From an uncultured bacterium (GTDB lineage: Bacteria > Bacillota_I > Bacilli_A > RFN20 > CAG-826), in assembly GCA_949284685.1 (NCBI GenBank), contig CASDWE010000002.1, positions 596,106 to 660,105 of the forward strand: 64,000 nucleotides of DNA, in the 5' to 3' direction. The position numbers and the translations under genes were made by a program. How positions within the stretch are numbered: the stretch's first letter is position 1; each line of letters begins with the position of its first letter. Under the pieces are notes generated by a model. It was given only the letters and a program-made list of their open reading frames with translations. It ran no database searches and had not been told where the DNA came from. Below are positions 29,121-64,000 of the stretch, piece by piece.

Positions 29121-29176
29121 TAGTTTTTCTCTCATTTTGTGTTATAATTTATGGGAAAGAGGTTGAATATGAGAGA
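29121..29176. repeat. Inverted-repeat module ttctctcat-N32-atgagagaa spanning the Fic promoter and start codon
   Basis: The left arm tagtttttctctcatttt (29121-29138) and right arm atatgagagaa (29166-29176) enclose an extended -10 (TGtTATAAT, 29140-29148). A second copy flanks the 3' end of the gene. Confidence 0.45.
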
Positions 29177-46848: not shown

Positions 46849-46924
46849 GCCTACTTAGCTCAGTCGGTAGAGCTATCGGCTGTTAACCGATCGGTCGTGG
46901 GTTCGAGTCCCTCAGTAGGCGCCA
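46849..46924 (+). tRNA. tRNA-Asn, anticodon GUU
   Basis: The acceptor stem gcctact/agtaggc pairs perfectly. The anticodon arm is atcgg-ctGTTaa-ccgat and the T-loop is ttcgagt, with an encoded CCA. Confidence 0.75.
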
Positions 46925-46929
46925 ATTTT

Positions 46930-47006
46930 GGCCCGTTGGAGAAGTGGCTTAACTCATATGCCTTTCACGCATACACTCATGGGTTCGAATCCCGTACGGG
47001 TCACCA
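46930..47006 (+). tRNA. tRNA-Glu, anticodon UUC
   Basis: The acceptor stem ggcccgt/acgggtc has one G-U pair. The anticodon arm is tatgc-ctTTCac-gcata and the T-loop is ttcgaat, with an encoded CCA. Confidence 0.75.
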
Positions 47007-47019
47007 TTAGAAAGATACT

Positions 47020-47050
47020 CGCTAGAATTGTAATGATTCTAGCGTTTTTT
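47020..47050 (+). terminator. Rho-independent terminator after the tRNA-Asn/tRNA-Glu pair
   Basis: cgctagaat-tgtaatg-attctagcg has a 9-bp perfect stem and is followed by TTTTTT. Confidence 0.55.
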
Positions 47051-47274: not shown

Positions 47275-48237
47275 ATGACTCAAGACGAAAAATTGATATA
47301 TTTAAATGAAATTGTTAAAAATAATTTTACAAGTGAATATAAGGGCCCTTTAATTTTGTATAAATATAGACCATTTGATGAGTATACTTTTGAAATGCTA
47401 GATAATGATTATATTTTCTTGTGTCCAGCCGAAAAAGAAGATGATGAAACTGAGTGCTTAACTACAACGAATCTTAATGAAATGTTAGATCCTAAGACTG
47501 GTAATTTATCAAAAAAATACTTAAATAAAATCGTTAGTTTGATAAAACCTAGTTCAACCGATAAGAATTATGAAATTGCTAAAGATAAAGTTTTTGAAAT
47601 TGCTGATAAAGAAGGTACTAATCCAATAATTTTTAATAAAGATTTTGCTATAGAACTTAAAAAAATGGCACCAGAAGGTACAGATGTTGGTCCAATAATA
47701 AAGGCAATTGAAAACATACCAGAAATGCTTAATAAGCCGGAAATGAGCAAAACTCTTGAACCAGCCTTCAAATTAGCAATTGATGCAAGAAAGAAAATTG
47801 GTATATGTTCATTAGCTGAAACAAATAATATAGATTATATGTGGAAGAATTACGCTCAAGAATCTTCTGGCTATTGTATTGAATATGACTTAAATGATTA
47901 TGAACTAGTAAAGAATATTTTACCTGTTATTTATCAAGATGAAAGAGAAACTAATATAATAGTTCAGTTTACAGGCACTATGCTAGGCTTACTTATATGT
48001 GCTATCAGCAAAGGATTAATACCTGCAGATGCGTCACACTTTATTAGATTATTCTTAACAAAATATAAGAAGTGGGAATATCAAAATGAGTGGAGATATA
48101 TAGGTAGTGCTAATGACAAGCCTAAGGCTCCAAAAGTAAAAACAATTTACTTAGGAAAGAATGTTACTGCTGAGAACGAAATAGAAATGAGAAAATATGC
48201 AGCTTTAAAGAGCATACCAGTTATAAAACTTAATTAG
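47275..48237 (+). CDS. DUF2971-like protein (defence-island associated), tentative
   Basis: The N-terminal region LILYKYRPFDEYTFEMLDNDYIFLCPAEKEDDETE resembles the ...lyKYrs...N-DpfE signature of the DUF2971 family. Confidence 0.45.
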   Translation: MTQDEKLIYLNEIVKNNFTSEYKGPLILYKYRPFDEYTFEMLDNDYIFLCPAEKEDDETECLTTTNLNEMLDPKTGNLSKKYLNKIVSLIKPSSTDKNYEIAKDKVFEIADKEGTNPIIFNKDFAIELKKMAPEGTDVGPIIKAIENIPEMLNKPEMSKTLEPAFKLAIDARKKIGICSLAETNNIDYMWKNYAQESSGYCIEYDLNDYELVKNILPVIYQDERETNIIVQFTGTMLGLLICAISKGLIPADASHFIRLFLTKYKKWEYQNEWRYIGSANDKPKAPKVKTIYLGKNVTAENEIEMRKYAALKSIPVIKLN

Positions 48238-48249
48238 GGAGGAAAGGCT

Positions 48250-49410
48250 ATGAAAATCCATAATATTCATATACATTTTGATTTTGGAAACTGTCTTGTG
48301 ATAAGAAACGATACTCCATTGCTTGATTGTTATCAAATCCAAAAAGATAATGCTAATGCAGCATTAATTGATAAAATTGAAAAAGAAACAAGTGGTAAGT
48401 TTGTATATTTCTTAATTGATATAAATCAAGCAAAGAACGTAAAAAGAAATATTTATATTGGAAAAACAAACAGCTTGATGAATCGAATTATCAGTCATAG
48501 AAAGAATAAAGACTGGTGGAATACGATTATCGTATTTGGTAACAAGTATTTATCTTCAGATGACATAGATGCTATTGAAAAGCTTCTTATTGAGGAATAT
48601 GAAAATTCTGATCTTTATACAATCAAAAATGATGTGGGATCTAATGCTAAATTAAGTGAGCAACATAATGATTATAGAGAATACATTGTTGATATTATGG
48701 ATTTTCTATCTTATGGAGTTACTAAAACTGTCATTACTCCTGAGACTAAAACTAATCAAGTGGTTATTCAAACAGCTGCTCAACCATTATCTAATTCTAG
48801 TAGACAAGAATCATTTAAATTTTCAATGTTAGATATAAAACCTGGTGAGATACTTTCATTTATTAACAATGATAAAGTAACTTGCGAAGTTGTTGATGAT
48901 AAGAATGTTAAATATAAAGGGAAGTTATATTCTTTAAGTTCTTTGGCAAAAGAATTATTGAATACTAATGTTCCTAAAAGAGGAACTGATTATTTTTTAT
49001 ATAAAGGTAAGACTTTAAGAGTTTTAAGAGATGAAAAGAATGGAATACAAGTTTCTGATGTTGAAAAAACTAATAATTGGATTATTTCTTGTAATAAAGA
49101 GTTCTATGATTTAGATAATGCATTAAACGAAATGAAAATTATTGATTTTAAACAAAATGCTAATGTTGAAGCTGGTAGTAAAGTATATATTTATTCATCA
49201 GGTGAAGATAAAAAATTAGTTTATATAACTGAAGCTGTTGTAGTTAATAAACCAGAACAGACTATAAATGACGATAAATATATAAAGAATAAGAGTGGTT
49301 ATGCTGATTCTAATAGATACATGGAACTTAAGCTAGTAAAAAAACTCGAATCTGATAAATTATCATTATCTGATTTAAAGAAAAATGGACTTAGAGGTAA
49401 CTTGCAATGA
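48250..49410 (+). CDS. GIY-YIG nuclease-family protein with a C-terminal extension (DUF4357-like), tentative
   Basis: FVYFLIDIN...NIYIGKTNSLMNRIISHRKN fits the GIY...YIG...R...H spacing. There is a GGGAGG RBS. Confidence 0.5.
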   Translation: MKIHNIHIHFDFGNCLVIRNDTPLLDCYQIQKDNANAALIDKIEKETSGKFVYFLIDINQAKNVKRNIYIGKTNSLMNRIISHRKNKDWWNTIIVFGNKYLSSDDIDAIEKLLIEEYENSDLYTIKNDVGSNAKLSEQHNDYREYIVDIMDFLSYGVTKTVITPETKTNQVVIQTAAQPLSNSSRQESFKFSMLDIKPGEILSFINNDKVTCEVVDDKNVKYKGKLYSLSSLAKELLNTNVPKRGTDYFLYKGKTLRVLRDEKNGIQVSDVEKTNNWIISCNKEFYDLDNALNEMKIIDFKQNANVEAGSKVYIYSSGEDKKLVYITEAVVVNKPEQTINDDKYIKNKSGYADSNRYMELKLVKKLESDKLSLSDLKKNGLRGNLQ

Positions 49411-49481: not shown

Positions 49482-51149
49482 ATGTCTTTATTTAAAGAAA
49501 AACCGATATTATTTGAAACAATGTACTTCAAAGGTGGAGATTATGCAGGTGCTTTCTTTTTAAAGAATGTCGTTGACAATCTTTCTTATATTGAAACAAC
49601 TTTATCTTCGTTTGATTACTCAATTAATTCTATTGAAGATTTGTTTGATTTTTTGTGGTTGTCAGACTTTATAGAGATGGCAAATGAATTAGATATATTT
49701 AAAATCGATGAGGATATTAAAACAAGAATTCGTAATCTTGCTGATTCTATATATACTAATCCAAAAGAGTTTATAAAGTTTATTAATAATGATCCTGAAT
49801 TGGTTTTTACAAAACAAAATATTAATAAACCAATGTATTGGCATCTTTACTTACCGAGAATGTTAAATCTATGCTTTAACAAATATTCAACATCATTGAG
49901 ACAAAATGTTTTTGACTTCATAGAAGAAAATCTATATTTGAATGTATTATCATCATTTGATGAGTACCAAAAGTATTATCTAAAACATAAAGAATCATTT
50001 AAAAAGTTATTTAATTCTTTGAAAGAAACCAGACCATTTGATGACCAGATTTATAAAAACTTTTTATTAAAAAAGAATGATATTATAGATCTCGAATTCT
50101 TAAAAGAACAAGCCACATTTATATGTGAAAGAGCATATGATGAAATAATAAAAATGGGGTTAGATTCAGAAAATAAAGAAATTATGCAAGCAGTTAATTT
50201 TTTTGATGAATATTATGAACTTGCTCGTTTTTATAAACTTAAATGTGCAAATAAATATAGTGCCTATAAACCAAAAATAGAAAAAGTGTTAAATGATTAC
50301 ATTGTTAAGCATGGTCAACATATGGATTTTGGTCCTATAGATTTAAAACCAGCGCTAGATATTTTTGAAAAATCAGATGATGTATATAGATTTTTTCAAC
50401 TAACACATAGCATGAAAGATGATAAATACTATAACAATTTAAATAATGTATTTGAAACTACTCCGCCTGATGGTTTATCAGAATTATTTCCACCGAGAGG
50501 TAAAGTTGGTAGTGAGAATTATCCTATCTATAGACAGGATCATATTGATTTATATCTTTCGATTAATTCGAGTATTTTAAATATGATAATAGTTCATCCA
50601 AAGTTATCTGTTGATTTTTCGAATTATATCGGTGCAATCTGCTCTCATGTTCAAACTAACTATTTTGATGATCAAATCAATATTTTCAAAGAAATCGGTG
50701 GAAGTTATGAGATGATTAGTAATCTTTATATGCTTAGAACAAAGAAGCAGAGTGACTCTTTATTGTATAAAGCATTATGTAACGGATGCTGTGTAAATTT
50801 ATGTGGAACCATTGAAAAGATACTAAGAAATATAATAATTAAAGAAGAATCAGACAATGTTTACATTGATGAAAGTAAACTCACATTAGGTCAAATTTTT
50901 AAAAGAACGCATAATTTATCATCAATTTCAAATGGTATTAAATACTATTTAAAATACATATTAATGACTGATGAAGAGACTTCACCAATAAAAGAAAAAA
51001 GACCAGGTAGGGATATAAGAAATTGGCAGATGCATAACGCAAATGATAAGTATGATAAAACAAGTTATCAATTATGCGTTGAACTATTCTATTTAACTAT
51101 ATCTCTTGTAGTTGATTTAGTTGTAGTATCGTTAAAATACGACGAGTAG
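49482..51149 (+). CDS. Hypothetical protein with a C-terminal HEPN-like Rx4H motif
   Basis: The 555-aa product has a C-terminal ...RPGRDIRNWQMHNANDKYD... (R-x4-H) motif, similar to the motif in the 58195 gene. Confidence 0.4.
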   Translation: MSLFKEKPILFETMYFKGGDYAGAFFLKNVVDNLSYIETTLSSFDYSINSIEDLFDFLWLSDFIEMANELDIFKIDEDIKTRIRNLADSIYTNPKEFIKFINNDPELVFTKQNINKPMYWHLYLPRMLNLCFNKYSTSLRQNVFDFIEENLYLNVLSSFDEYQKYYLKHKESFKKLFNSLKETRPFDDQIYKNFLLKKNDIIDLEFLKEQATFICERAYDEIIKMGLDSENKEIMQAVNFFDEYYELARFYKLKCANKYSAYKPKIEKVLNDYIVKHGQHMDFGPIDLKPALDIFEKSDDVYRFFQLTHSMKDDKYYNNLNNVFETTPPDGLSELFPPRGKVGSENYPIYRQDHIDLYLSINSSILNMIIVHPKLSVDFSNYIGAICSHVQTNYFDDQINIFKEIGGSYEMISNLYMLRTKKQSDSLLYKALCNGCCVNLCGTIEKILRNIIIKEESDNVYIDESKLTLGQIFKRTHNLSSISNGIKYYLKYILMTDEETSPIKEKRPGRDIRNWQMHNANDKYDKTSYQLCVELFYLTISLVVDLVVVSLKYDE

Positions 51150-51184
51150 TCTTGCATTTGTTTTTTATATTAATGAGGTAGAAT

Positions 51185-51901
51185 ATGAAATCATTGAATG
51201 AAATAAAGTTATCTATAATAGATGAATTATCTAAGAACAAAGCGTATGATTTACCAAATATATGTTCTGCACTAGGGTTGGAAGATGGTACTGAAAACGA
51301 AGCCTATAATAGTAAAAGAATGTATGTGAGTAAACGAATTAATCATCTTTCTAAAGTTGAAATAAATAAATTACTATATGCAATGAAAGAAAATTTTGAT
51401 ATTGACCTATTACCAGAAGAAAACTGTAACTTTGATAATCTAAAAAAAGTCTCTGAAGAAATAAATAGTGACTATATAAATGTACAAATAGAATTAATGA
51501 AAAAATTTCAAAAAGAAAATCCAACAGAGGCTATTGGTAAAGCGAAGGAACTTTTAGAAACTATTTGTAAAACCATTTTAAAAAGATTAAATATAGAATT
51601 CGATGAATCATGTGAAATCCAAGCCTTAGCAAAAGCAACTTATAAAGCCTTGAAATTATCTCCAGATGAAGTAAAGGATGGCCCTTTATCTCAAACAATA
51701 AAACAAATATTAGGTGGATTGAATAGTATTTCAAGTGGTTTGGCTAGTTTGAGAAACTCTTATGGAAGTGGACATGGCAAGGACGAAAGTTATAAGGGGC
51801 TTCCAGAAAGATATTCAAAGTTAGCAATTGGAAGTGTATCTACACTAGTGGTGTTTCTATGGGAAACAATGCTATATCAAATTGATAAAAATCAAGAGTA
51901 A
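51185..51901 (+). CDS. Abi_C-like abortive-infection protein (HEPN superfamily), tentative
   Basis: The C-terminal ...SSGLASLRNSYGSGHGKD... fits the Abi_C pattern R-N-x5-H-G. There is a GAGG RBS. Confidence 0.5.
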   Translation: MKSLNEIKLSIIDELSKNKAYDLPNICSALGLEDGTENEAYNSKRMYVSKRINHLSKVEINKLLYAMKENFDIDLLPEENCNFDNLKKVSEEINSDYINVQIELMKKFQKENPTEAIGKAKELLETICKTILKRLNIEFDESCEIQALAKATYKALKLSPDEVKDGPLSQTIKQILGGLNSISSGLASLRNSYGSGHGKDESYKGLPERYSKLAIGSVSTLVVFLWETMLYQIDKNQE

Positions 51902-52132
51902 ATAATTGTAGTGATTTTATTCTTAAACTTGCATTTAGTAGAAACTAATGGAATAAGTATGTTAAAACCTGTCGTTTGGGTGAAAAAAATAACATTAGCA
52001 AATTTAAGGTCAAATAACTGTAGAGTTATTGTAGGTTCAGTAAATTGATAAAATAACTCTTTTGTTATATAATTATACCGATAATCTAAAGTACCAGAAA
52101 GTTGAGGAAGGGCTCAAAGGAGGTACTTGTGT

Positions 52133-52363
52133 ATGGATTATCAAAAAGCCATATTAGATAAAGAAGCAACAAGTATTAAACTTAGGTCCCTTAGAATCAA
52201 AGCTAATCTAACACATGATAGACTAGCTGCATTACTTCAACTAAACACACCTCGTGTGATTTATGATTGGGAATGTGCAAAGAAGATGCCTAATGTTGAA
52301 AACTTGTATAATCTGGCTCTAATATTTAATATGAAAATGGAGGATTTACTTGTGACCAAGTAG
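52133..52363 (+). CDS. XRE-family helix-turn-helix transcriptional regulator
   Basis: The HTH_3 core LRSLRIKANLTHDRLAALLQLNTPRVIYDWECAKKMPNVENLYNLALIF is present. An AAGGAGG RBS lies 9 nt upstream of the ATG at 52133. The track's 52127 start is a TTG. Confidence 0.7.
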   Translation: MDYQKAILDKEATSIKLRSLRIKANLTHDRLAALLQLNTPRVIYDWECAKKMPNVENLYNLALIFNMKMEDLLVTK

Positions 52364-52672
52364 ATCCTTCTTTTTTATTTTTGAACTATAGTACATTTTT
52401 TATTCCTGGATTTATTGTTAAAATAATAACAGTATCTATGAATATGTCCGTTGATATTGAAATAAATTTCAATAATGTGATATAATTATATAAAGATACA
52501 TATGCAGGTTCTGAAACAGTGGAGTAAGAACTTTACCTATATGAAATGTTGGAACAAATCCTATGGTTGGGATATACCATATGAGGAGTAAACCAATAGT
52601 TAAAAGCTAATTTTCAAGAGTGGTATTGCGTGTCTAAACAAAATAACATAATAAGAGGAAGAATGTTATTGA

Positions 52673-52708
52673 AGTGGCGATAGGCTAATACCTACCGTCA
52701 CTTTTTTG
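52673..52708 (+). terminator. Intrinsic terminator (attenuator-like) at the end of a ~370-nt leader, 7 nt upstream of the operon RBS
   Basis: agtggcgatagg-ctaata-cctaccgtcact forms a 12-bp stem with one G-U pair and one mismatch, followed by TTTTTTG. The AAGGAGG RBS and the ATG at 52731 follow. Confidence 0.5.
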
Positions 52709-52730
52709 TATATAAGGAGGTGTCAATAAC

Positions 52731-53660
52731 ATGAAAAAGAAAAGCAAAGTCATCGGTAAAGACTATGATAAATTAGAAAAAGATAATAGATTCGATCAGA
52801 TTGATTATTATGGTCTTATTGCTAAAGATGGCAGAATTAAAATTGACACAAAGAGATATAAAAAATTCTTTACTATTCCTGATACTAAAATAGAAAGAAG
52901 ACAATCTGTTTATTACCTTCCAACAAAGCAACATAGATCCGATTATAAATGTAATTGGTTCAGAGATTTGTTAGCAGGTTATAAACAATTGTGGTTTAGA
53001 GAATATAAAAGTTTTATTGATAGCATTAAGACACCAAAGCAAGTAGAAGATAGTGCGAGATTAGATTATTTAGCTGATGGTGTTCTTGAGTACGATGAAG
53101 CTAATGCAAAAGCATTTATTGCAGGTATGAAAAGAAGTGCTGACTATAAAGTGATTATTAAATCTTTATATGCTCAATTCTTCCATCAAATGATGTCTAG
53201 CATTGATGCTTTATGTTTAAAGATGTTAACTGCCTGTGGTTATAAAGAAGAAGATTATACTAAGAAACAATTTGATATTTATATTCAAGGTTTGCAAGGT
53301 AATAATGCATTATCATTCAGACAATACGATAATTATCAATTATATGATAGAGCATTTACTGTTTGGAACTTCCTAAAGCATAACTCTCTTAGATCATATA
53401 AGATCTTGAAGCAATGGTATCCTAAAATGGTATGGGATCCAGAAGAGAAATATCAAAATGGTGAATCTGCACTTACTGTTGTTAAATTAGATGAGAAATT
53501 CATCTTAGATTGTATTGATAACTTACATTTATTCTTTGATGAATTATGTGCGAGAGCTTTTGGTGAAAATGCTGATGATGCACAATGGGATTATGATGAT
53601 TACTTCTTAGACGTCGTACAAGATGAAATAGATGTTATTGTTAATCCACTAGGTATATAG
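52731..53660 (+). CDS. Hypothetical protein, first gene of the helicase operon
   Basis: The 309-aa product has a strong AAGGAGG RBS and no recognisable catalytic motif. Confidence 0.45.
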   Translation: MKKKSKVIGKDYDKLEKDNRFDQIDYYGLIAKDGRIKIDTKRYKKFFTIPDTKIERRQSVYYLPTKQHRSDYKCNWFRDLLAGYKQLWFREYKSFIDSIKTPKQVEDSARLDYLADGVLEYDEANAKAFIAGMKRSADYKVIIKSLYAQFFHQMMSSIDALCLKMLTACGYKEEDYTKKQFDIYIQGLQGNNALSFRQYDNYQLYDRAFTVWNFLKHNSLRSYKILKQWYPKMVWDPEEKYQNGESALTVVKLDEKFILDCIDNLHLFFDELCARAFGENADDAQWDYDDYFLDVVQDEIDVIVNPLGI

Positions 53661-53672
53661 GAGGGCGGAAGA

Positions 53673-56600
53673 ATGGCATATTTATTTCTATCTTTTACTG
53701 ACAGATTGAATAATGGTTCTAATTTTAAAAGTGAATTATATAATCAATCTCTAACTGAACAATTTGAATATATCCAAAAAAGAATCCCTCTTGAAAGACA
53801 AGTTAGTAGCTTTAGATCATTTATAGAAGAATGCTTTACTACAGGAATGATGAAGAAATATTACATTTCTTGCCCTAACTTCTTAAGAGAAAAAGAATCT
53901 TCAAAAAGTGGTAAAGTGCAATATCTTGATAATGTAGTTGTACGTCCAGAATTAACTTTATCAATGAGAAAAGTGTTACCTGATAATCAAAACATAATTC
54001 TTATCGGTAAGATTGTAGAAGGTGGCAAACAAAAACATTTAGAGGTAAAAGGGATACAATTAATAGATTCCTCTATGTCTTCACCTAATGATATTGTTAT
54101 TTCTGCAGCTGCATGTAATTCATTTTCTGAAGAAAAAAGAGCAAGCATGTATGGTGGTACATTTGCTGTTAACATATGGTCGGTTCCAAATGTTCCTTAT
54201 GAAGATACTGTATTTACACCTAATTTTGTATATGAACTAATTCAATCATGCTGGACTGTATCTAAGCCAGAGCAAATTAGACAATCTTATGATATTTGGA
54301 ATAAATACATTGAATTTAGAAAGTACTATCTTCAAGAACAATCAAAGCGTAATTTTAAATTAGATAGAGCTATGTTTGTTGAAGCATATGCCGTCAATAG
54401 AAAAGACTACAAAAAGAATGCTTCAATTTATGATGAATATCTACTTGATGGACGAGATGAGTTTAAATGGGGAGATATGATTGTTTTATCTGAAAAGATA
54501 GAAGATGCTGAAGAATTCCCACTTATTAGATTAGATATTGAAAGAAATAGAAAAGCTTTTAATGAAGCTAAAGTTACAAAACGTGGAAAATTAGTTAATG
54601 AAGAAGAACGTAAGATTCGTTCATTATCTAGTGATAATGTATTTATTACTGCTATTGATCCTGAAAGTAAATCACAGCATAACGATAGACAGGTTACTTT
54701 TGGTGAATTATTAAATGCTGGATATGCATTAGGTGATAGATTTAAAATTGTTTCTTATGATATCGAACCTACTGAGCATTTAGAAGAATTAGATCAAGTA
54801 TATACAAAAGATATTGATAACTCATATAAAAATATAGATGCTAAGTTTGAAAAGATTATTAAAGAAGAAGTAAAACAAGCAGTTACTTTATATGAAAAAG
54901 AATTAAATAAACAAGCTAAAGAAAGAATTGATTCTTATAAAAATGAACTAGATAGTTCTTTAGAACAAGATGTTTTAGAAAATAAAGATAAAAATATTAT
55001 TAGTTTAATTGATAAAAAGAAAAAAGAAATTGAAGCTAATGTTAAAAAGAATAATAAACAAGATAAAAAAGAAAAAGATAATGAATATGCATTAAGAATA
55101 AAAGCGTTAATTGAAGATGAAATATCTAAAATTGATGTCAAGTCATATTATGTTGAAAGAAATTCTAAATTATTACAAGATAATGCGAATAAGATTGAAG
55201 TTGAACTAAAGAGATTATTGGCACAGTATGAAGTAAAAAAGAATTCTGAAATTACTAACAAATATAAAGATGATGTTAGAAATGAAAAGATTAAATCAAA
55301 AGAAGAACTTGATGCTAAGTTAAAGTCTGATAAAGAAAAAGCAATTGAAGAAGAAACAATTATTAGATTCTCGTTATATTTTAGATTAGGTGATTCTAAT
55401 AATTTTATTTCTGATAAGCAAAAAAAGGTTGTAGATTCTTGTGAATATATTGTTTATGATAATCGTGCTGAAAAGGCAAAGATATCAAGACAAGAAGCAG
55501 CTTTAGATAATTTCTATTCTGGATATGTTAAGAATCCATATCTTTCAACATATCTTTTTAATCCTGAAGAATTAGATACTGTTAAAGCTGAACCTAGCGA
55601 TTGGATATGGTATTTAGATTCTCTTAATGAAAAGCAAAAAGAGGCTGTAAGAAAAGCAGTTTCAAGTAACGGTATATTCTTACTTCAAGGTCCTCCAGGA
55701 ACTGGTAAAACACAAGTAATTGCTGAAACAGTAGCTCAGTTAATTAAAAAAGGTAAGAAGGTATTAATTTCATCAGAAACTCATAAGGCAATTGATAATG
55801 TATTTGAAAGATTACCTAAGATTGCTGAAATTGTACCTATTAGATTAATTCCTTCTAATAATGATAAAAAGAAAGAAAACGAATATGATCCAAAATTCCT
55901 AGTAGATAATTTCTATTTAAATATTTCTTCTAATATGAAGAAAGCTGTTAATAGATATAAGAATTTTGAAAAGAACAAAATAGAATTTGCTGAAAACTTT
56001 GATAAATTAAAGTTGGCAAAAGCCAAAATAGAAAAATCTCAAAAGGTTTTAGATAAGGCTAACGAAGAAATCAAAAAGTTTGAAGACAATGCTAAAGACA
56101 TTAATTCTAAGATATCAGTATTAAATGATAAAAAGGACTTGGTCAGAATTGATATTGATATCTTAAGAAGAACTAAACGTCATATTGAAAATGATAATTT
56201 GAGACCTGATGAAGATGTAAAGGTTGACTTGATTGTTGATGTAAGAAAGAAACTAGAACCTTTATTTGAAAAAGATGTTTATATCGATGATGATTTAGGC
56301 CAATTATTAAAAAATATTAATTTAATTAAAAATGATGAAATAGAACGTGAGTTAGCAGTCATTAATCCTGAATCCAATAAAACTATTCTTGAAGTTAAGA
56401 AAAATGATTTAAAGGCTGAATTAAATAAATATGTTGATGAATTGGGAGACATTATTAATCCTAATAATGAAGAAAAAGTTGAAGAAATTAAAAATGAATT
56501 AAGAAAGGTTTTAAAAGAACTTAAGGCTGAATCAGTTGACATATCTTTAAGCGATTTAAAACTTAATAAGATTTTTAATTATTCATATTTAGTTGCTAAT

Positions 56601-58202
56601 ATTTCTCTAATTCCAGAAGTTATTAGAACTGTAAAAGATAGAATTATTGAGATTAAATCTTCAACGATAGAAGTTCTTAATAAAGAATTACGTACTATTG
56701 AAGATAAACAAGCAGAACTAGATAAAGAAATAGATTCATTAAAGCAACAAATAAAAGTAATTAATGAAAATATTATTGATATTCAAGAAAGAAATGATGT
56801 TAAAGATATTCAAGAAGCTAAATACAAGCTTGAGAATGATTTAATAAAATTCTTTAAAGATTTTGAAATTGCTGAACCATATAGAGATGTAGATGAAGGT
56901 CTAAAGATTATTAAACGTAAATGGTCTGAGCTTGAAGATGATTTCCAAGCGAAAGAACAAGAAAATAGAGAAAAAATACCTATGTATGAAAAGATCGCAA
57001 ATTACATCACTAGTGAAGATGTAATTGAAGAAGATAGAAAGGTATTTACTAAAGACTTGTTTGAAAATGCTAATGTATTTGGTATTACATGTACATCTAA
57101 CGATAGATTCAGTGGAAGAAATGTTGATGCATTATCTGAATATAATATCGATGAGATTGATATTAAGTCTGTAGGTATTGATGTAGTTATTATTGACGAA
57201 GTTTCTAAATCAAGTTTTATAGATTTATTGATACCTATTCTTTATGGTAAAACAGTTATTCTAGTTGGAGACCATAGACAATTACCTCCAATGTATGAAT
57301 TCTCAAAATTAAGAGATGATGATTTTGAAGGATTAGATGAGACAATTATTAATAAAGAAATTAATAAAGAGTTCACTAAATTGTATGAAGAGTGTTTCTT
57401 CAAAACTCTATTTGAAAGAATACCAGATAGTTATAAAACTATGTTAGTTCAACAATATAGATGTCATGAACATATTATGAATGTATTTAACCATTTCTAT
57501 AAAGGCGAATTAAAACTAGGTTTTGCAGGTCAAAACAATAATAAACATCATAATGTTAAATTACTATCAAATGGTAGAAATATTATCGAACCAGATAAAC
57601 ATATTTATTTTGTTGATTGTAAGCAAAATGAAACGCATGAAGCTGATTCAACATCTATGTACAATACTGGTGAAGCTAGAGTTGTAGTTGAATTAATCAG
57701 AAAATTAAATACATACTTTAAATCGCATCCTGAACTTGAAAAGTTAAGCATTGGTGTTATTTGTACTTACGGAGACCAAGCTAGAAAAGTAAAAGAATTA
57801 CTTAAGAGTGAAAAGGTTAAAACTGATGCATTTAAAACTGACGTTGAAAAGATGATAGTCTCTACAGTCGATGATTTCCAAGGCGATGAAAGAGATATTA
57901 TTATCTTGACTACAGTTAGAAATCCTGAGAATCCAAAAAGAAGTAATCCTGGATTCATCTTGGCTTATCAAAGAATTAATGTTGCCTTATCTAGAGCTAG
58001 AAGAATGCTTGTTATGGTAGGTAATAGAAAATACCTAGAAGAAAAAGGTGTGATAGATCTACCAGATGTCTATGGTCGTGTTGGTAAAGAGCAACGAAAC
58101 TTTAGAGTTTATGAAGAAATCCTATCTACTATTGAACGATATGGTAAGGTCATTGAGGATATTGATGTATTAGATGATAAGGAGGCGAGAATAAATGGAT
58201 AA
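53673..58202 (+). CDS. Giant Upf1/DNA2-like superfamily-1B helicase (1509 aa) with an unassigned ~640-aa N-terminus and a ~500-aa Lys/Glu coiled-coil insertion
   Basis: Motif I is LLQGPPGTGKTQ and motif II is VVIIDEVSKSSF. VGDHRQLPPM is motif III and QYRCHEHI is motif IV. VSTVDDFQGDERDIIILTTVR and YQRINVALSRARRMLVMVGN are motifs V and VI, the AAA_11/AAA_12 architecture. There is a GGAGGG RBS. Confidence 0.8.
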   Translation: MAYLFLSFTDRLNNGSNFKSELYNQSLTEQFEYIQKRIPLERQVSSFRSFIEECFTTGMMKKYYISCPNFLREKESSKSGKVQYLDNVVVRPELTLSMRKVLPDNQNIILIGKIVEGGKQKHLEVKGIQLIDSSMSSPNDIVISAAACNSFSEEKRASMYGGTFAVNIWSVPNVPYEDTVFTPNFVYELIQSCWTVSKPEQIRQSYDIWNKYIEFRKYYLQEQSKRNFKLDRAMFVEAYAVNRKDYKKNASIYDEYLLDGRDEFKWGDMIVLSEKIEDAEEFPLIRLDIERNRKAFNEAKVTKRGKLVNEEERKIRSLSSDNVFITAIDPESKSQHNDRQVTFGELLNAGYALGDRFKIVSYDIEPTEHLEELDQVYTKDIDNSYKNIDAKFEKIIKEEVKQAVTLYEKELNKQAKERIDSYKNELDSSLEQDVLENKDKNIISLIDKKKKEIEANVKKNNKQDKKEKDNEYALRIKALIEDEISKIDVKSYYVERNSKLLQDNANKIEVELKRLLAQYEVKKNSEITNKYKDDVRNEKIKSKEELDAKLKSDKEKAIEEETIIRFSLYFRLGDSNNFISDKQKKVVDSCEYIVYDNRAEKAKISRQEAALDNFYSGYVKNPYLSTYLFNPEELDTVKAEPSDWIWYLDSLNEKQKEAVRKAVSSNGIFLLQGPPGTGKTQVIAETVAQLIKKGKKVLISSETHKAIDNVFERLPKIAEIVPIRLIPSNNDKKKENEYDPKFLVDNFYLNISSNMKKAVNRYKNFEKNKIEFAENFDKLKLAKAKIEKSQKVLDKANEEIKKFEDNAKDINSKISVLNDKKDLVRIDIDILRRTKRHIENDNLRPDEDVKVDLIVDVRKKLEPLFEKDVYIDDDLGQLLKNINLIKNDEIERELAVINPESNKTILEVKKNDLKAELNKYVDELGDIINPNNEEKVEEIKNELRKVLKELKAESVDISLSDLKLNKIFNYSYLVANISLIPEVIRTVKDRIIEIKSSTIEVLNKELRTIEDKQAELDKEIDSLKQQIKVINENIIDIQERNDVKDIQEAKYKLENDLIKFFKDFEIAEPYRDVDEGLKIIKRKWSELEDDFQAKEQENREKIPMYEKIANYITSEDVIEEDRKVFTKDLFENANVFGITCTSNDRFSGRNVDALSEYNIDEIDIKSVGIDVVIIDEVSKSSFIDLLIPILYGKTVILVGDHRQLPPMYEFSKLRDDDFEGLDETIINKEINKEFTKLYEECFFKTLFERIPDSYKTMLVQQYRCHEHIMNVFNHFYKGELKLGFAGQNNNKHHNVKLLSNGRNIIEPDKHIYFVDCKQNETHEADSTSMYNTGEARVVVELIRKLNTYFKSHPELEKLSIGVICTYGDQARKVKELLKSEKVKTDAFKTDVEKMIVSTVDDFQGDERDIIILTTVRNPENPKRSNPGFILAYQRINVALSRARRMLVMVGNRKYLEEKGVIDLPDVYGRVGKEQRNFRVYEEILSTIERYGKVIEDIDVLDDKEARING

Positions 58203-60327
58203 GTTTAAATTAGAAACTTCTATGCAATTTCCATTCTTTAAATTGAATGAACTTGCTATATATTCAGAAGTTAAAAAGCCTAGTGGTGTAGCCTATATTT
58301 TACTAGTACTTATCAGTGAGTCAAAAAATAAAAATGATAGATTATCTAAAGTGCTAGAGAATTTTGGTATACCTAAATCTTTACATTATATTTTTGCTGA
58401 TAATGTTCAATACCTTATGAATCAGGGAATACTAGAAGAATTTAACTTTTACAAAACTGAATTTGATAGTTATCTTATAGGATCATTTCAATTTACTTCA
58501 AAAGGTAAAAAAATATTTGCAGAAGAATCTATTCCTACAGGTGTTAATAAAGAATTAAAGGTTGCAGTCTTTTATGATATTGCAATGAATGCATTATCTT
58601 TAAAAATGGATGTTGATTTAGATCCTAAACCATTAATGGACTGTGCAATTACACCTGAATTTATGAATTCATTTAAATGTGAAAAGAATGTAGAAAATTT
58701 CTTAAACCTTCAAAAAGGTAAAGGAATAGGCATAAAGAAAGAAGAAATAATTACTAGCGTAGAGTTATTAAATCAAGAAAATTGGATTGGAAAATATGAT
58801 TGTGACATGAATATCAAAGGCGATGATATAGAAATCAAATTTGATGAAGCGTTACTACAAAAATTCTTTGATGCTAATTACAATCAAGAAATGGTTAATT
58901 TAGCCATATCATATAAAAACAAGTTCAAGTTTAAATCTTCTTTTAAAGATAATCTAAAACTAAGTAGTTATGGTTTTGATAGAATTGCTGGAATTATTAT
59001 TCCAAAAGAAATTGATGATGTGTTAAAGCAAAAAAATCAATTATTACTTACAAAAGGTAATTATAAAACTTCAAATGGTTATATGGTTACTAGTGCTGAT
59101 TCACTTGCTGGATTTGATGATACAATTGAATTCATACAAGTTGATATGCATGATTCGATTTATGCATATATTCCAGGCAACTTTAATTTTAATAATAGTA
59201 TATTTGGAACTATTACAATTCCTTTGGCTGTTAAAATTAAACTAACTGATGAGGAATTGAAAAATGTTATTAGACCATATGTACTTTCTTTATCTTCATA
59301 TAGCGAAGATAACTTTAGAGAGCTTGTTAAGGTAACAAATATCACTGATGACTTAAAGTTAGCAAAAGAGATTATTGAAGGTTATGTTAATAAAAATGCA
59401 GAAAGCAATATTGTCTTGTTAAATGAAATGAAGCCATATGCAATATCTAATGGTGGTATTTCAAATATCTATAGAGAGCTATTAGAAAAGAACTATAACA
59501 ATTATATGGATAATTTAACTGAAGACAATCTTGAAACAGCATTAAAGATAACTGCTTCAGTTCCTAAATTCCTAAATATTCCAAATAAGGACGTTTTATC
59601 TAAAATCTTTAAGAATGTAAAGGCTAGAAGTGAATTGAAGATTTATGAAACTTTAGTAAATAAAGGATTTGATAAATCACTAGTTGTTCTATATGTTAAC
59701 CCAGTAAATGAAATACTTAAGTTGAGAGATTCTGAAGAGAAGAGTCTTATTGATTTAATTAATTATGATGATGCTTTGGAAGAAATGAAACGCATAACAA
59801 ATATAAGTGATTATAAGAGTTATTTGTATGATGAAGAAAAGATAAATCATAATGAATTTAAAACAAATTATAACAAAGCATTCAATCTTCAAAAGAATAT
59901 TTTAGTGTTTAAAAATGGCAATGAAGCATTATTTGCAAATTATGATGGTTTTATGAAGCTGTTCTCTACAATTAATGATGATATTAATATGGTTGAGTCA
60001 GCTCTTAAAAATCCTAATAATCTGAAACTAGATTTAATTGAAAAGAAAATATCTAGTGGTGAATATCAATTTGTATTTGTTAATCTATCTGCAAAATTAG
60101 AAACAATTCTTAAAAACAAGTATAAATTAGAAGGTAAATTATCTGACATGCTAAATGATGCAAGATCTAATGGTATAATCGATAAAAAGATTGTCAGTGA
60201 TTTGCATGATTTTAGAGATAACAGAAATGCAAATGTTCATCCTGAAGATAGAACGTCTAACTATGATGCAAATGATCTCAGAAGATGGGCAAAAGAAATC
60301 TTTGATTTGGAGGTGAAAAAGAAATGA
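58195..60327 (+). CDS. Hypothetical 710-aa protein with a C-terminal HEPN-like (DUF4145-type) Rx4H motif
   Basis: The C-terminal ...LHDFRDNRNANVHPEDRTSNYD... (R-x4-H) is present. There is an AAGGAGG RBS. It overlaps the helicase gene by 8 nt. Confidence 0.45.
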   Translation: MDKFKLETSMQFPFFKLNELAIYSEVKKPSGVAYILLVLISESKNKNDRLSKVLENFGIPKSLHYIFADNVQYLMNQGILEEFNFYKTEFDSYLIGSFQFTSKGKKIFAEESIPTGVNKELKVAVFYDIAMNALSLKMDVDLDPKPLMDCAITPEFMNSFKCEKNVENFLNLQKGKGIGIKKEEIITSVELLNQENWIGKYDCDMNIKGDDIEIKFDEALLQKFFDANYNQEMVNLAISYKNKFKFKSSFKDNLKLSSYGFDRIAGIIIPKEIDDVLKQKNQLLLTKGNYKTSNGYMVTSADSLAGFDDTIEFIQVDMHDSIYAYIPGNFNFNNSIFGTITIPLAVKIKLTDEELKNVIRPYVLSLSSYSEDNFRELVKVTNITDDLKLAKEIIEGYVNKNAESNIVLLNEMKPYAISNGGISNIYRELLEKNYNNYMDNLTEDNLETALKITASVPKFLNIPNKDVLSKIFKNVKARSELKIYETLVNKGFDKSLVVLYVNPVNEILKLRDSEEKSLIDLINYDDALEEMKRITNISDYKSYLYDEEKINHNEFKTNYNKAFNLQKNILVFKNGNEALFANYDGFMKLFSTINDDINMVESALKNPNNLKLDLIEKKISSGEYQFVFVNLSAKLETILKNKYKLEGKLSDMLNDARSNGIIDKKIVSDLHDFRDNRNANVHPEDRTSNYDANDLRRWAKEIFDLEVKKK

Positions 60328-61412
60328 GCCAGCAAGTAACTGTTGATTACCAAGGTGTATCTATTCAAGTGCAAGCTAAATGTGATACAGCTGTTCATTC
60401 GCTATGTCAAATAGATAAAGTGCTTGATAGAATACATAAAACAGCAGATAAGCTAGAAACATCAAAAGTAAAAGAATATGAAGCTTATTTGCAAAAATCC
60501 AAGGAAACAATCAAAGAAAAGATTGAAGCGTTTAAGAAGACTCTAGAAAAATATAAAGAAGCTAGGGCTTATTCGGTTAATAATCATCAACCAGATTATC
60601 AACAATTCATTAATTTTACTAATAAAGTTCAAGCTGAATCACAAGAATTAATTAGAACAGTAAATGAGTTAACTGGTTCTAAACTTGCAGTAATTGATCA
60701 GATGATTGATGAAGGATTATTAAATGCTGGACAAGAAACTACTCAAGCTATGCTTGATAAATTACATGGTGTTATTTCGATTTCAGATGATGTTTTATTA
60801 AAGATTAATAGTATAGAAGATGTTTCATTAAGAGAATTAGCTTATAGAGAAATTCTTAAAAATGATAAACTTAGTTTTGATGAAGCAATTACTAAAGCAC
60901 AAGAAGAATATGATGTTCTCTTAGGTAAACAAACAAAGAAAGTTATTCAAGAATATAAAGAAGAACTTACTGCTAAGGGTATTACTGTTGAAGAATTAGA
61001 TAAAGCTAAATCTATTGATGAAGCTAATGCTATTGCTAATGAAGCAATTACTGATGAAACAGTAAGAAAAGAAACTTTAAAAGTTATTATTAAAGCAATC
61101 AAAGATAGAGGATTCATTGTTGATACAAAGAAGAATCTTAAAATCGATAAAGAAAGAAATATTGTTAAGCTTGTTGCATTAAAGGCATCTGGACAAATGG
61201 CTGAATTTGAAATTCAACTTAATGGTAAGTTTATGTACCACTTTGATGAATATGAAGGTCATGCATGTAAGAAAGATATAGAACCATTCTTAGAAGATTT
61301 AAAGAATATCTACGATATCAATATTCTTCATGAAGAAGTAACGTGGGAAAATCCAGATAAGATTCAAACTCAAAAATATCAATACATAAACAAAAATAAG
61401 GGTACTAATTAG
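60324..61412 (+). CDS. Hypothetical coiled-coil protein (362 aa), possible partner of the downstream ClpB-like ATPase
   Basis: There is a GGAGG RBS and a 4-nt overlap with the upstream gene. It has no catalytic motif. Confidence 0.4.
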   Translation: MSQQVTVDYQGVSIQVQAKCDTAVHSLCQIDKVLDRIHKTADKLETSKVKEYEAYLQKSKETIKEKIEAFKKTLEKYKEARAYSVNNHQPDYQQFINFTNKVQAESQELIRTVNELTGSKLAVIDQMIDEGLLNAGQETTQAMLDKLHGVISISDDVLLKINSIEDVSLRELAYREILKNDKLSFDEAITKAQEEYDVLLGKQTKKVIQEYKEELTAKGITVEELDKAKSIDEANAIANEAITDETVRKETLKVIIKAIKDRGFIVDTKKNLKIDKERNIVKLVALKASGQMAEFEIQLNGKFMYHFDEYEGHACKKDIEPFLEDLKNIYDINILHEEVTWENPDKIQTQKYQYINKNKGTN

Positions 61413-61423
61413 GAGGTAAACAT

Positions 61424-63238
61424 ATGTCTTTACAAAATAGTTTTAATAAAATCAGAAGAAATGCTGGAATTAAAAAATGTGTCATGATTGATGGCAATGT
61501 TGGTGACGTTTATTTAAATGAAAAAAATAATATCGTCACATTAAGAGAATATCTTGAAGCAATGTTCAAAGATATGGATTATCAAGACATTGTTTACTGG
61601 GATAGAGTTGAAGGTGCAACTGGTGCAATTGATAAGCTTACTTTAACAGATGAAGTTGAAGTAGAAGGTGATGCATATGATTTAGGTGATGAAGAAGAAA
61701 CACCTAAAGCACAACAAGGCTTATTTAAATCACCAGCTGAAATCTTAAATGTTGTTTATAAGAATGTAATTGATAAAAAGAAAAAAGTAGCTTTTATTAT
61801 CAATTGGTCTGAATATTTATTCAGTGTTAATGGGTTAAGCGATGATGAAAGACAAAATATTACTTTATTAGGTAAAGCTCTAAAGGATAGAAAAGTAGAT
61901 TATTTAAACACTGACTGCAACGAAAGTGTTGTTGTCATTATTTTAAATAAAGCGTCTGGATTACCATTATCTTTCTATCAAGGAAATCCTGAAGTTGAAA
62001 TTGTAACATTACAAAAACCAGATAGAGAAGAAAGAAAACAAATGATTCAAAAGATAGAAGATTCATTTGAAGTTAGATTAAAATCTGGTACTAGCTCATT
62101 GCTTGATAATGAAAATATCGATTGTATTGATATGCTTGAAGATTTCACTAATCGTGAGATTATTCAATTATCAAGAATGTCTAGAAAAGAAGATAAGATG
62201 ACTTTTGATAAGTTATTCTATTTATTCAAATATGGTGAAAAAGAAAATCCATGGGAAAAATTAGAACAATCTAGAGTTAAGAATATCAAAAAAGAATTAT
62301 CTGACAGAGTTATAGGTCAAGAAGAAGCAATTGATAAAATTGAAAAGACTGTTGTTAAAGCATATATGGGTTTAACAGGCCTTCATAAAACTTCATCTAG
62401 ATCAATGCCAAAAGGTGTATTCTTCTTTGTTGGTCCTACTGGTGTAGGTAAAACTGAGCTTTCAAAGGCTTTAGCTAAATTCTTATTTGGTGATGAACAA
62501 GCTTGTATTAGATTTGATATGTCTGAATATGCTCAAGAGAATAGTGATCAAAAATTAATTGGTGCAGCTCCTGGATATGTTGGATATGAAGAAGGTGGCC
62601 AATTAACTAATGCAATTAAAGAACATCCATTCTCAGTTGTATTATTTGATGAAATTGAAAAGGCTGCAAAACCTAATCCACGTATTCTAGATATTTTCTT
62701 ACAAATTCTAGAAGATGGTCGTTTAACAGATTCTAAAGGTGAAACTGTATACTTCAGCGACACAATTATAGTATTCACATCTAACTTGGGTGCTAACCAA
62801 GTTCAAGCATCATCTGATAAAGAAGGTGTAGCAAAAGAATTCATTAAGATTGTAAAAGATTACTTTGATAATGAATTAAAGAGACCAGAATTATTAGGAC
62901 GTATCGGATACAATAATATCGTTCCATTTAATTTCATTCAAGATAGAGATTTCCAAGTTAAGATTTGTAAGAACAAACTAAAACCAGTTATCAGGGGAAT
63001 AGAAGAAAAATATAAACTTGAATTGGAATTTGAGAAAGAATTGGAAGCTATCGAATATATCTTAAAAGCTGTAGATTCATCTAAAGGTGGTCGTGATATT
63101 TTAAATGCTATCAATGATAGATTATTAGATCCACTAGCAATGTTCTTATTTGAAAATAAAGATGAATTACGTTCTTTAAAAGGAAGCAGAATTATTACAA
63201 AGGTAACAAAAGATGGATTCAGCTTTGACTTCGATTAA
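61424..63238 (+). CDS. ClpA/ClpB-D2-like AAA+ ATPase with an unassigned ~300-aa N-terminal domain
   Basis: RVIGQEEAI...FFFVGPTGVGKTELSKALA...LIGAAPGYVGYEEGGQLT...VVLFDEIEKAAKPNPRILDIFLQILEDGRLTDSKG...VFTSN is the canonical ClpB second nucleotide-binding domain, with sensor and D2-small domain. There is an AGGAGG RBS. Confidence 0.75.
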   Translation: MSLQNSFNKIRRNAGIKKCVMIDGNVGDVYLNEKNNIVTLREYLEAMFKDMDYQDIVYWDRVEGATGAIDKLTLTDEVEVEGDAYDLGDEEETPKAQQGLFKSPAEILNVVYKNVIDKKKKVAFIINWSEYLFSVNGLSDDERQNITLLGKALKDRKVDYLNTDCNESVVVIILNKASGLPLSFYQGNPEVEIVTLQKPDREERKQMIQKIEDSFEVRLKSGTSSLLDNENIDCIDMLEDFTNREIIQLSRMSRKEDKMTFDKLFYLFKYGEKENPWEKLEQSRVKNIKKELSDRVIGQEEAIDKIEKTVVKAYMGLTGLHKTSSRSMPKGVFFFVGPTGVGKTELSKALAKFLFGDEQACIRFDMSEYAQENSDQKLIGAAPGYVGYEEGGQLTNAIKEHPFSVVLFDEIEKAAKPNPRILDIFLQILEDGRLTDSKGETVYFSDTIIVFTSNLGANQVQASSDKEGVAKEFIKIVKDYFDNELKRPELLGRIGYNNIVPFNFIQDRDFQVKICKNKLKPVIRGIEEKYKLELEFEKELEAIEYILKAVDSSKGGRDILNAINDRLLDPLAMFLFENKDELRSLKGSRIITKVTKDGFSFDFD

Positions 63239-63767
63239 GTTTAATGTAGCATATATAAAATTATGTACTAAAACTGAAGGTCCATATAAGAGATGCTGTA
63301 TTTGGTTTCAAGGATGTAACATTAATTGTAGAGGATGTTGTAATAACGATTTACAACCATTAGTTCCAAATCATATAGTTACATTAAAAGAACTTATCGA
63401 TATAGTTAAAGAAGCTAAAGATAAGTTTGATATAGAAGGTATAACTCTTAGTGGTGGTGAACCTTCTTTACAAACTGGTTTAAAATTCTTCAATAATGAA
63501 ATTCATAAATTAGGATTAGGAATTATTATGTTTTCAGGAAAAAATAAACAACTTCTTGACAAAGAACTAGTTGAATCTGTTGATTTATTAATAGATGGTC
63601 CATTTATTGAAGAACAACTTGATGATAAAAGAGTTTTATTAGGTTCTAAAAATAAACGATTATCTTTTATTACTGATAGATATAAAAAAGAAGAAAATTA
63701 TTTCAATAATCCTATAGCTATAGAAGAAGTAACAGCTGAGGATTATATCTTCATAAATGGAGACTGA
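63213..63767 (+). CDS. Small radical-SAM / 4Fe-4S activase-like protein (NrdG/QueE-like)
   Basis: The cluster motif FQGCNINCRGC is CX3CX2C. ITLSGGEP (SAM-binding) is present. The 184-aa size is typical of NrdG-type activases. Confidence 0.7.
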   Translation: MDSALTSIKFNVAYIKLCTKTEGPYKRCCIWFQGCNINCRGCCNNDLQPLVPNHIVTLKELIDIVKEAKDKFDIEGITLSGGEPSLQTGLKFFNNEIHKLGLGIIMFSGKNKQLLDKELVESVDLLIDGPFIEEQLDDKRVLLGSKNKRLSFITDRYKKEENYFNNPIAIEEVTAEDYIFINGD

Positions 63768-63769
63768 TT

Positions 63770-64000
63770 ATGGATAAAAAGAGAATAGAAAGTGAAATGA
63801 GAGAATTAGAACTTAAAATTCATTATCATTTCAATGACATATCTTGGCTTGCTAAAGCTATGGGTTCTATAAAAGTACCTGTTCCAGGTCAAGGAAAGAA
63901 TGGTTCTGAATATTCTAATGAAGGCTTGGCTACTGTTGGTGATACTATATTAAAATCAGTTATTGCTGATAAGTTTTATAGAGAAGGAATAAGAACCAAA
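63770..64000 (+). CDS. Divergent RNase III-like protein, N-terminal 77 aa; the gene continues beyond the window
   Basis: LELKIHYHFNDISWLAKAMGS...SEYSNEGLATVGDTILKSVIADKFYREG aligns with the RNase III N-terminal LxxxLGYxFxDxxLLxxALTHxS...NERLEFLGDAxLxxVVxxxLY. The ERLEFLGD signature has diverged to EGLATVGD. The ATG is 2 nt after the radical-SAM stop. Confidence 0.6.
   Translation, partial: MDKKRIESEMRELELKIHYHFNDISWLAKAMGSIKVPVPGQGKNGSEYSNEGLATVGDTILKSVIADKFYREGIRTK

Follow-up and report, generated by a model that had tools for sequence, protein, structure and literature searches.

Prokaryotic immunity repeatedly relies on HEPN ribonucleases (RNases), which occur, for example, in Cas13, Csm6, AbiJ and RAZR. 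Three proteins carrying the R-x4-6-H signature of these enzymes near their C-termini, here called p555, p238 and p710 after their lengths in amino acids, are encoded close together in a 64,000-nucleotide stretch from an uncultured bacterium of the CAG-826 lineage (assembly GCA_949284685.1, contig CASDWE010000002.1, positions 596,106 to 660,105), which is referred to as the window throughout. The region from about 47.0 kb to beyond the window end is probably a chromosomal defence island with at least three independent modules that are predicted to kill by HEPN-type RNases. Since HEPN RNases are common in immunity, three of them in one island are not surprising in themselves. Current ideas are not overturned by this locus, and its value lies in the concrete leads which it provides: a helicase cassette around p710, the pairing of p555 with a DUF2971 protein, and a leader RNA.

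The closest described systems fall into several groups. In the survey of the HEPN superfamily by Anantharaman et al. (PMC3710099), a HEPN RNase is characterized by an R-x4-6-H motif conserved across the family and by metal-independent RNase activity which needs both R and H, whereas inactive families lose the motif, its conservation being about 60% in MtlR. AbiJ, DUF4145 and DUF4209 are all HEPN families in that survey; DUF4145 is often fused to helicases and restriction enzymes. In the anti-phage protein RAZR, a single-gene system, a DUF4145 domain supplies the RNase activity and is combined with a zinc finger (PMC13434031). Among helicase-based systems, Mokosh joins a Upf1-like COG1112 helicase, which has a Ser/Thr kinase domain in type I, to a PLD nuclease, which is fused or separately encoded, and the McrBC-derived CoCoNuT systems of types II and III combine HEPN domains with a Upf1-like helicase (CnuH) and are predicted to target RNA (PMC11090510). 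DUF2971 is a predicted DarT-like ADP-ribosyltransferase (PMC12522546) and the domain of Aristaios, a validated single-gene lactococcal anti-phage system (PMC11381338).

Conserved motifs in three proteins of the island

The original prediction named three motif-bearing proteins, and both the list of open reading frames (ORFs) and a regular-expression scan reproduced all three proteins and their motifs exactly. The core of the motif reads R513-N-W-Q-M-H518 in p555, R190-N-S-Y-G-S-G-H197 in p238 and R677-N-A-N-V-H682 in p710, with 37, 41 and 28 residues, respectively, between the histidine and the C-terminus. Taken per protein, the bare motif is only weakly significant, as R-x4-6-H appears in the last 60 residues of shuffled proteins with a probability of 0.08 for p555, 0.03 for p238 and 0.02 for p710. 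Among the 45 window ORFs of at least 150 amino acids, p555, p238 and p710 are the only ones with R-x4-6-H within the last 60 residues and also the only ones with RN-x(3-5)-H at any position. Two further strings, RRTKRH of the helicase and RAYSVNNH of p362, lie away from the C-terminus and were treated as chance occurrences.

We regard conservation among homologues, over the mere occurrence of the motif, as decisive for the predicted active sites. Retention of R and H in homologues had been set as a check on the prediction, and R, N and H are kept in all three families. In the p555 family, R513, N514, M517 and H518 are invariant in 29 of 29 homologues. The same is true of R190, N191, G194, G196, H197 and G198 in all 34 diverse homologues of p238. 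The p710 family was collected by an exhaustive search (144 representatives at 50% clustering), and conservation was derived from 61 full-length members with identities down to 18%. R677 is present in 58, N678 in 57 and H682 in 60 of these, and the three residues are among merely 13 columns that are at least 90% conserved. An acidic or polar residue in helix 2 is retained as well (E445 of p555 in 29/29, E125 of p238 in 34/34, and E, Q or D at position 636 of p710 in 55/61 sequences). In the AlphaFold2 (AF2) models of p555 and p710 the motifs lie inside a HEPN-like fold, which was the second check set beforehand.

The N-terminal regions, claimed to be unrelated, indeed gave nothing significant in pairwise BLASTP among the three proteins. 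The claim of several HEPN modules in one island also held, with conserved HEPN motifs, an Abi_C domain in p238, a DUF4145 domain in p710 and mutually independent modules. Neither p555 and p238 nor the neighbouring p320 and p386 accompany the helicase cassette of p710 in other loci; as no other island gene travels with the cassette, the three HEPN modules are separate.

The AbiJ-type protein p238 and the DUF4145-type protein p710

Judged from its sequence, p238 is already known biology, an ordinary AbiJ-type protein. Its match to PF14355 reaches 90.7 bits (cut-off 24) and covers profile positions 2-83 of 83, and its homologues are labelled 'abortive infection family protein' in several sources. 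Like AbiJ/Abi_C proteins of Lactococcus and other bacteria, p238 contains a full Abi_C domain in its C-terminal 150 residues, with the signature ELRNxYGSGHGK, preceded by an invariant K-x-K-E-x-x-E helix in which K119, K121 and E125 are unchanged in the 34 homologues. It differs from them in having no recognizable AbiJ-NTD: residues 1-146 gave no Pfam match, whether to AbiJ-NTD1-5 or to any other family. The nearest relatives are 399 amino acids long and consist of AbiJ_NTD3 and Abi_C; p238 aligns with the N-terminal 75 and the C-terminal 153 residues of these proteins, and the approximately 170 residues between them, including the region equivalent to PF18860, are missing. Solo forms without AbiJ-NTD have been described (PMC3710099). 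Compared with the 399-residue relatives, p238 looks as though it had lost the presumed sensor domain by an in-frame internal deletion.

The C-terminal domain of p710 scored 24.0 bits with Pfam DUF4145 (gathering score 23.1), and the C-terminal consensus of the p710 family scored 36.8 bits (E 4e-9). This consensus also matches HepT-like, HEPN_RiboL-PSP and HEPN_Swt1, and many close homologues of p710 have a precomputed PF13643 match. The model consists of a beta-rich N-terminal half, possibly with winged-helix-like elements, and a helical C-terminal half that ends in the HEPN domain. R677 and N678 end helix 664-681 and H682 is the first residue of the following loop, a placement which agrees with the description of HEPN domains in PMC3710099. 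With DUF4145 proteins including RAZR, p710 thus shares the domain match and the motif R-x2-R-N-x3-H-P. Instead of the zinc finger of RAZR it has the large beta-rich N-terminal half, and it is a subunit of a five- to seven-gene cassette, not a single-gene system. A zinc finger was sought in p710 by Pfam and as CxxC pairs in the sequence, and neither was found; membership in RAZR was rejected, since its defining part is absent. By these matches, p710 carries a domain that is already known, within a system not yet described.

p555, probable founder of a new HEPN family

No match to p555 was obtained in Pfam, NCBIfam, PADLOC or PHROGs; homologues were found in 30 clusters. In the AF2 model, the C-terminal domain is built of helix 1 (401-420), helix 2 (427-456), an insert, helix 3 (484-494 plus 512-517) and helix 4 (529-550). 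E445, K446 and R449 of helix 2 are invariant in the 29 homologues. The motif lies on the short helix 512-517, which follows a non-helical break in helix 3 and precedes helix 4; similar distortions have been described for HEPN domains (PMC3710099). A weak hhalign alignment of p555 with the C-terminus of AbiJ (E 0.022) was colinear over 97 columns and spanned the helix-2 block, a middle block and the RN...H motif. Fold, motif and context together make it fairly likely that p555 is a HEPN protein. It is the least certain of the three and would probably represent a new HEPN family.

The best structural matches of p555 are 7ae2 and 5yep, HEPN toxins of HEPN-MNT pairs. Membership in this toxin-antitoxin type was rejected, as there is no adjacent MNT antitoxin gene: a Pfam scan of the neighbours of p555, p238 and p710 revealed no nucleotidyltransferase domain. 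The helical N-terminal region of 400 residues and the insert in helix 3 are unique to p555 and distinguish it from both these toxins and the DUF4209 proteins. A second R-x5-H of p555 (R303...H309) was also considered and rejected as a HEPN site; of 29 sequences, 15 have Arg and 12 have Lys at residue 303, and the segment continues into a beta-hairpin. The same segment (residues 303-318, positions 50386-50435) forms a conserved patch, [RK]-F-x-Q-L-T-H ... N, which leads from a short helix into the hairpin, with T308 invariant and H309 and N318 present in 28/29 sequences.

The genomic neighbourhoods of p555 homologues are those of defence genes. Two homologues lie directly behind hsdR of a type I restriction-modification (R-M) system (L002, L019; L numbers denote the loci compared), one near SIR2 and GmrSD genes (L017) and one between HNH and ASCH/MTaX1/methylase genes (L018). 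A DUF2971 gene is located immediately upstream of the p555 homologue in three of seven other loci (L016, L017, L019), and in two of these three its stop codon overlaps the start of the homologue. The identities of these DUF2971 proteins to p320 (39, 42 and 53%) track those of the adjacent proteins to p555 (39, 38 and 56%). Both p320 and p555 are present in the window, where they are separated by p386. The homologues in L001, L002 and L018 have no DUF2971 neighbour. Genes of the p555 type are found singly, beside R-M genes or directly behind a DUF2971 gene. The DUF2971 assignment of p320 rests on 28.9 bits (cut-off 22) and on a PDC-S31 match of 2e-26. In size (320 versus 316 amino acids) and domain p320 resembles Aristaios, its likeness being one of size and domain, and it differs in that the p320-type gene is coupled to a p555-type gene in the window and in the three other loci. 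The intervening p386 is outside the HEPN finding: it matched PDC-S57 (7.6e-26, residues 174-264), PDC-S14 (7.5e-17, residues 45-171) and, below the threshold, Pfam GIY-YIG (residues 51-100).

The helicase cassette and its leader RNA

The proposal that p710 is embedded in a helicase operon was borne out by 13 other loci, all of them strictly syntenic. In each, the helicase gene is followed by those of p710, p362 and the ClpB-like AAA+ ATPase, with overlapping or abutting genes, even in two loci in which p710 is just 22-28% identical. The radical-SAM gene comes next in 11/13 loci, one of the remaining two ending before that position, and a short RNase III gene is present in 9/13, with a Sel1-repeat gene in its place in L006. 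In the window, the operon accordingly reaches well past position 60327, through p362, the ClpB-like AAA+ gene and the radical-SAM gene to the RNase III gene. Within the cassette, p710 is the fastest-evolving gene and p604 the most conserved one: p604 is 92-100% identical where p710 is 57-88% identical, and 67-72% where p710 is 22-28%. Such fast evolution of p710 would be expected if the gene were directly engaged in conflict with phages.

The relatives of p1509 in the Protein Data Bank (PDB) are SMUBP-2, Sen1, DNA2 and Upf1, and its Walker A motif (residue 673) and DE box (1172) are intact. Those of p604 are ClpE, ClpC and ClpB, again with intact Walker A and B motifs. The p184 protein matched NCBIfam NrdG with 2e-17, below the equivalog cut-off, and has CxxxCxxC at residue 35. 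The L003 counterpart of the RNase III gene, at the same position, is a Pfam Ribonuclease_3 gene of 166 codons, and no dsRNA-binding domain was detected in the relatives. No match to p362 or p309 was found in Pfam, NCBIfam, PADLOC, PHROGs or PDB sequences, and PDB sequence searches with p238, p710 and the p555 profile likewise returned nothing relevant. Although p184 is of the glycyl-radical activase type, the cassette has no obvious glycyl-radical partner; no RVxG-type motif was seen by eye in the C-termini of p362, p604 and p1509.

The hosts of the cassette are Christensenellales, other Clostridia, Bacilli, Erysipelotrichaceae and Anaeroplasma metagenome-assembled genomes (MAGs) from gut and other anaerobe metagenomes. 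Serine recombinases adjoin cassette relatives, which together with the distant Firmicutes lineages points to horizontal transfer; tblastn of p710 against plasmid and phage records gave no match.

The cassette shares with Mokosh the overall logic of an RNA-type superfamily 1 (SF1) helicase with a nuclease effector, and the Upf1/SMUBP-2-like core of p1509 matches MkoA models with 3e-93. It differs in that its nuclease candidate is a HEPN protein and in the additional p362, ClpB-like AAA+, radical-SAM and RNase III genes. No PLD nuclease was found in any cassette protein, either by Pfam or as an HxK(x4)D motif, and no Ser/Thr kinase domain was matched in p1509; without the PLD/HKD nuclease and the kinase domain, membership in Mokosh was rejected according to the published definition. 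With CoCoNuT types II and III the cassette shares a Upf1-like helicase accompanied by a HEPN domain, and the Lys/Glu-rich inserts of p1509 could be a further likeness if they form a coiled coil. In contrast to these systems, the cassette ATPase is of the Clp/Hsp100 D2 type (the NCBIfam McrB model gave 0.0043, the cut-off being much higher), and neither a McrB-type GTPase (CnuB) nor McrC (CnuC) is encoded; CoCoNuT membership was rejected because both are absent. The combination of a Upf1-like helicase, a HEPN protein, a Clp-type AAA+ ATPase and a radical-SAM protein was absent from the defence, family and literature resources searched, and the literature searches found no paper describing radical SAM, RNase III, helicase and AAA+ together.

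The head of the operon contains probable control elements. The helix-turn-helix (HTH) gene has its own promoter-like site (52045-52073) and terminator (52339-52370), and copies with 69-97% identity lie upstream of the operon in L003, L007 and L008; it is probably the operon regulator. In these three close relatives p309 is the first operon gene, whereas L011 and L015 have distant versions and the gene is absent or replaced in other loci. Between the HTH gene and p309 lies a leader RNA with a strong promoter-like site, and its terminator hairpin and U-run end 20 nucleotides before the p309 start codon. The leader precedes p309 homologues in 45 of the loci that were fetched, drawn from L003, L007, L008 and L020-L063. 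An alignment of 35 distinct sequences, 34 from these loci and that of the window, has a mean column identity of 90%, and the leader is still 77% identical to that of the window where p309 is 61-69% identical. RNAalifold predicted 59 pairs in 10 helices, with 99% of cells paired. Compensatory changes were seen at 11 pairs, compared with 3.9+-1.3 in shuffled controls (0/500) and 1-4 in slid controls. A leader peptide encoded by the internal ORF of 29 codons was rejected: the ATG is missing or an early stop occurs in 9/35 sequences, in which the RNA helices are kept. A search of Rfam at the gathering threshold and at an E-value threshold matched the leader to no family. The covariation indicates a structured RNA, and it looks like a new attenuator or riboswitch-like element controlling the operon in the lineage of the window.

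Discussion

RNase activity and a role in defence are inferred for p555, p238 and p710 by analogy with characterized HEPN proteins. As in other HEPN systems, the HEPN domains would stay inactive until an infection is detected by the variable N-terminal regions; in the case of p710, the helicase might serve as the sensor by working on phage RNA or replication intermediates. The HEPN domains would then pair to form a composite R/N/H active site, and cleavage of cellular and phage RNA would stop translation and abort the infection. Within the helicase cassette, p710 is the most likely effector. We propose only tentatively, rating it at somewhat below an even chance, that the cassette is an undescribed multi-gene anti-phage system whose expression is gated by the leader RNA and that p555 is the founder of a DUF2971-partnered HEPN family.

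Several observations weigh against the assignment of active HEPN RNases. Neither p555 nor its family consensus matches any HEPN family in Pfam, and a Foldseek search of the PDB with the p555 model gave nothing significant (best E 0.14), all matches being helical repeats. In six p555 homologues the best Pfam match over the motif region is DUF4209, with 14-18 bits compared to a gathering score of 22.3. The hhalign comparisons among the three C-terminal domains placed the motifs in register but did not reach significance. The best structural matches of p710 include MtlR, a regulator that is not a nuclease, and p238, devoid of the presumed phage-sensing domain, could be a gene in decay. Finally, the RNase III encoded in many cassette loci could be the real nuclease. 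The RN-x3-H motif of p555 might accordingly belong to another helical fold or activity, such as a binding site or a different enzyme, which would leave p238 and p710 as the only HEPN proteins. We consider this improbable in view of the invariant motif residues and the HEPN toxins at the top of the structural matches. DUF4209 is itself a HEPN family found, like p555, in R-M-related operons; its scores with the homologues are all sub-threshold, and p555 itself scores nothing. A broader objection is that the HEPN domains are non-catalytic and serve dimerization, ligand binding or regulation, as in MtlR or in the substrate-binding domains of nucleotidyltransferases, the cassette nuclease being RNase III or some unknown activity. 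Inactive families lose the motif, however, and 93-100% of the sequences analysed here retain R, N and H. DUF4145 is a demonstrated RNase in RAZR (PMC13434031), and RNase III is missing from distant cassette versions in which p710 is still present, as in L006. The non-catalytic explanation is therefore very improbable in our opinion, and HEPN-type RNase activity remains the preferred prediction for all three proteins.

The biological roles of the modules could also be different from those proposed. The position of DUF2971 genes directly upstream of p555 homologues, the overlapping stop and start codons, the parallel identities and the presence of both genes in the window, with p386 between them, would fit p555 as a partner (antitoxin, regulator or second effector) of the DUF2971 protein in a two-gene system and not as an autonomous effector. 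This is rather unlikely, as p555 homologues also occur without DUF2971 and Aristaios acts as a single gene (PMC11381338); moreover, a partner may well be a HEPN RNase, so that this explanation is no true alternative to the HEPN assignment. The frequent place of p555 homologues behind the DUF2971 gene suggests a two-effector module, in which RNA cleavage would be combined with ADP-ribosylation. The helicase cassette might, on the other hand, be a module for RNA surveillance, stress response or maintenance of a mobile element, with an incidental position in the island. Housekeeping functions are known for Upf1-like helicases, Clp ATPases and RNase III alike, and defence models match no cassette gene beyond the generic helicase and AAA+ cores. 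We think such a function doubtful: the cassette is patchily distributed, with 57-88% identity across the hosts listed above, serine recombinases adjoin it, AbiJ, DUF2971 and PDC-type genes share the island, p710 outpaces its neighbours in evolution as arms-race genes do, and the helicase core closely matches MkoA of Mokosh.

If the cassette is a defence system, its AAA+ and radical-SAM components would bring chemistry new to HEPN systems. A HEPN RNase would then be coupled to an unfoldase and radical-SAM chemistry, and a new riboswitch-like or protein-bound RNA would control its expression. The leader RNA offers a direct route to understanding how such a toxic operon stays silent.

Borders and features of the island

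The features of the island are listed in Table 1. Upstream of 46.8 kb the window contains housekeeping genes, GltX, ProS and a Tad-like pilus ATPase, and every gene from 47.3 kb on is defence-like or of unknown function.

Table 1 Features of the island and their positions in the window (pLDDT, predicted local distance difference test; XRE, family name of the HTH regulator)
Feature	Position	Strand	Basis or remark
tRNA-Asn and tRNA-Glu genes	46849..47006	+	ARAGORN, Rfam; left island border
Terminator behind tRNA genes	47020-47044		Terminator scan
p320, DUF2971 protein (predicted DarT-like ADP-ribosyltransferase, Aristaios-like)	47275..48237	+	Pfam DUF2971, PADLOC PDC-S31
p386, GIY-YIG-like candidate defence gene between p320 and p555	48250..49410	+	PADLOC PDC-S57, PDC-S14
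p555, all-alpha protein of unnamed family, C-terminal HEPN-like domain	49482..51149	+	AF2 model, pLDDT 87.4
HEPN-like domain of p555, residues ~401-550	50682..51131	+	AF2 model
p555 motif GRDIRNWQMH, residues 509-518	51006..51035	+	Predicted catalytic R513, N514, H518
p238, AbiJ-family abortive-infection protein, short form	51185..51901	+	Pfam Abi_C 6.6e-26, PADLOC AbiJ 4.5e-15
Abi_C (AbiJ-type HEPN) domain of p238, residues 147-227	51623..51865	+	Pfam PF14355
p238 motif LRNSYGSGH, residues 189-197	51749..51775	+	R190, N191, H197
XRE-type HTH gene, 76 amino acids	52133..52363	+	Pfam HTH_3 2.4e-6
Conserved structured non-coding leader RNA, 225 nucleotides, intrinsic terminator at end	52487..52712	+	Promoter-like site 52457-52486
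p309, first operon gene in close relatives	52731..53660	+	In L003, L007, L008
p1509, Upf1/SMUBP-2/Sen1-like SF1 helicase with long Lys/Glu-rich inserts	53673..58202	+	Pfam AAA_11, AAA_12; PADLOC MkoA 3e-93
p710	58195..60327	+	Start overlaps helicase stop; AF2 model, pLDDT 91.8
DUF4145-type HEPN domain of p710, residues ~577-707	59923..60315	+	Pfam match 629-694
p710 motif FRDNRNANVH, residues 673-682	60211..60240	+	R677, N678, H682
p362, always behind p710	60324..61412	+	Found in 13/13 loci
p604, single-ring Clp/Hsp100 D2-type AAA+ ATPase, unique N-terminal region	61424..63238	+	Pfam AAA_2 2.6e-51, ClpB_D2-small
p184, small NrdG-like radical-SAM activase	63213..63767	+	Pfam Fer4_12 8.6e-23
Short RNase III gene, 5' part	63770..64000	+	Runs past window end; 84% identical to L003 counterpart

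The window also encodes a Fic/DOC-family protein of 355 amino acids (29151-30218), whose gene lies between housekeeping and tRNA genes and precedes the island by approximately 17 kb.

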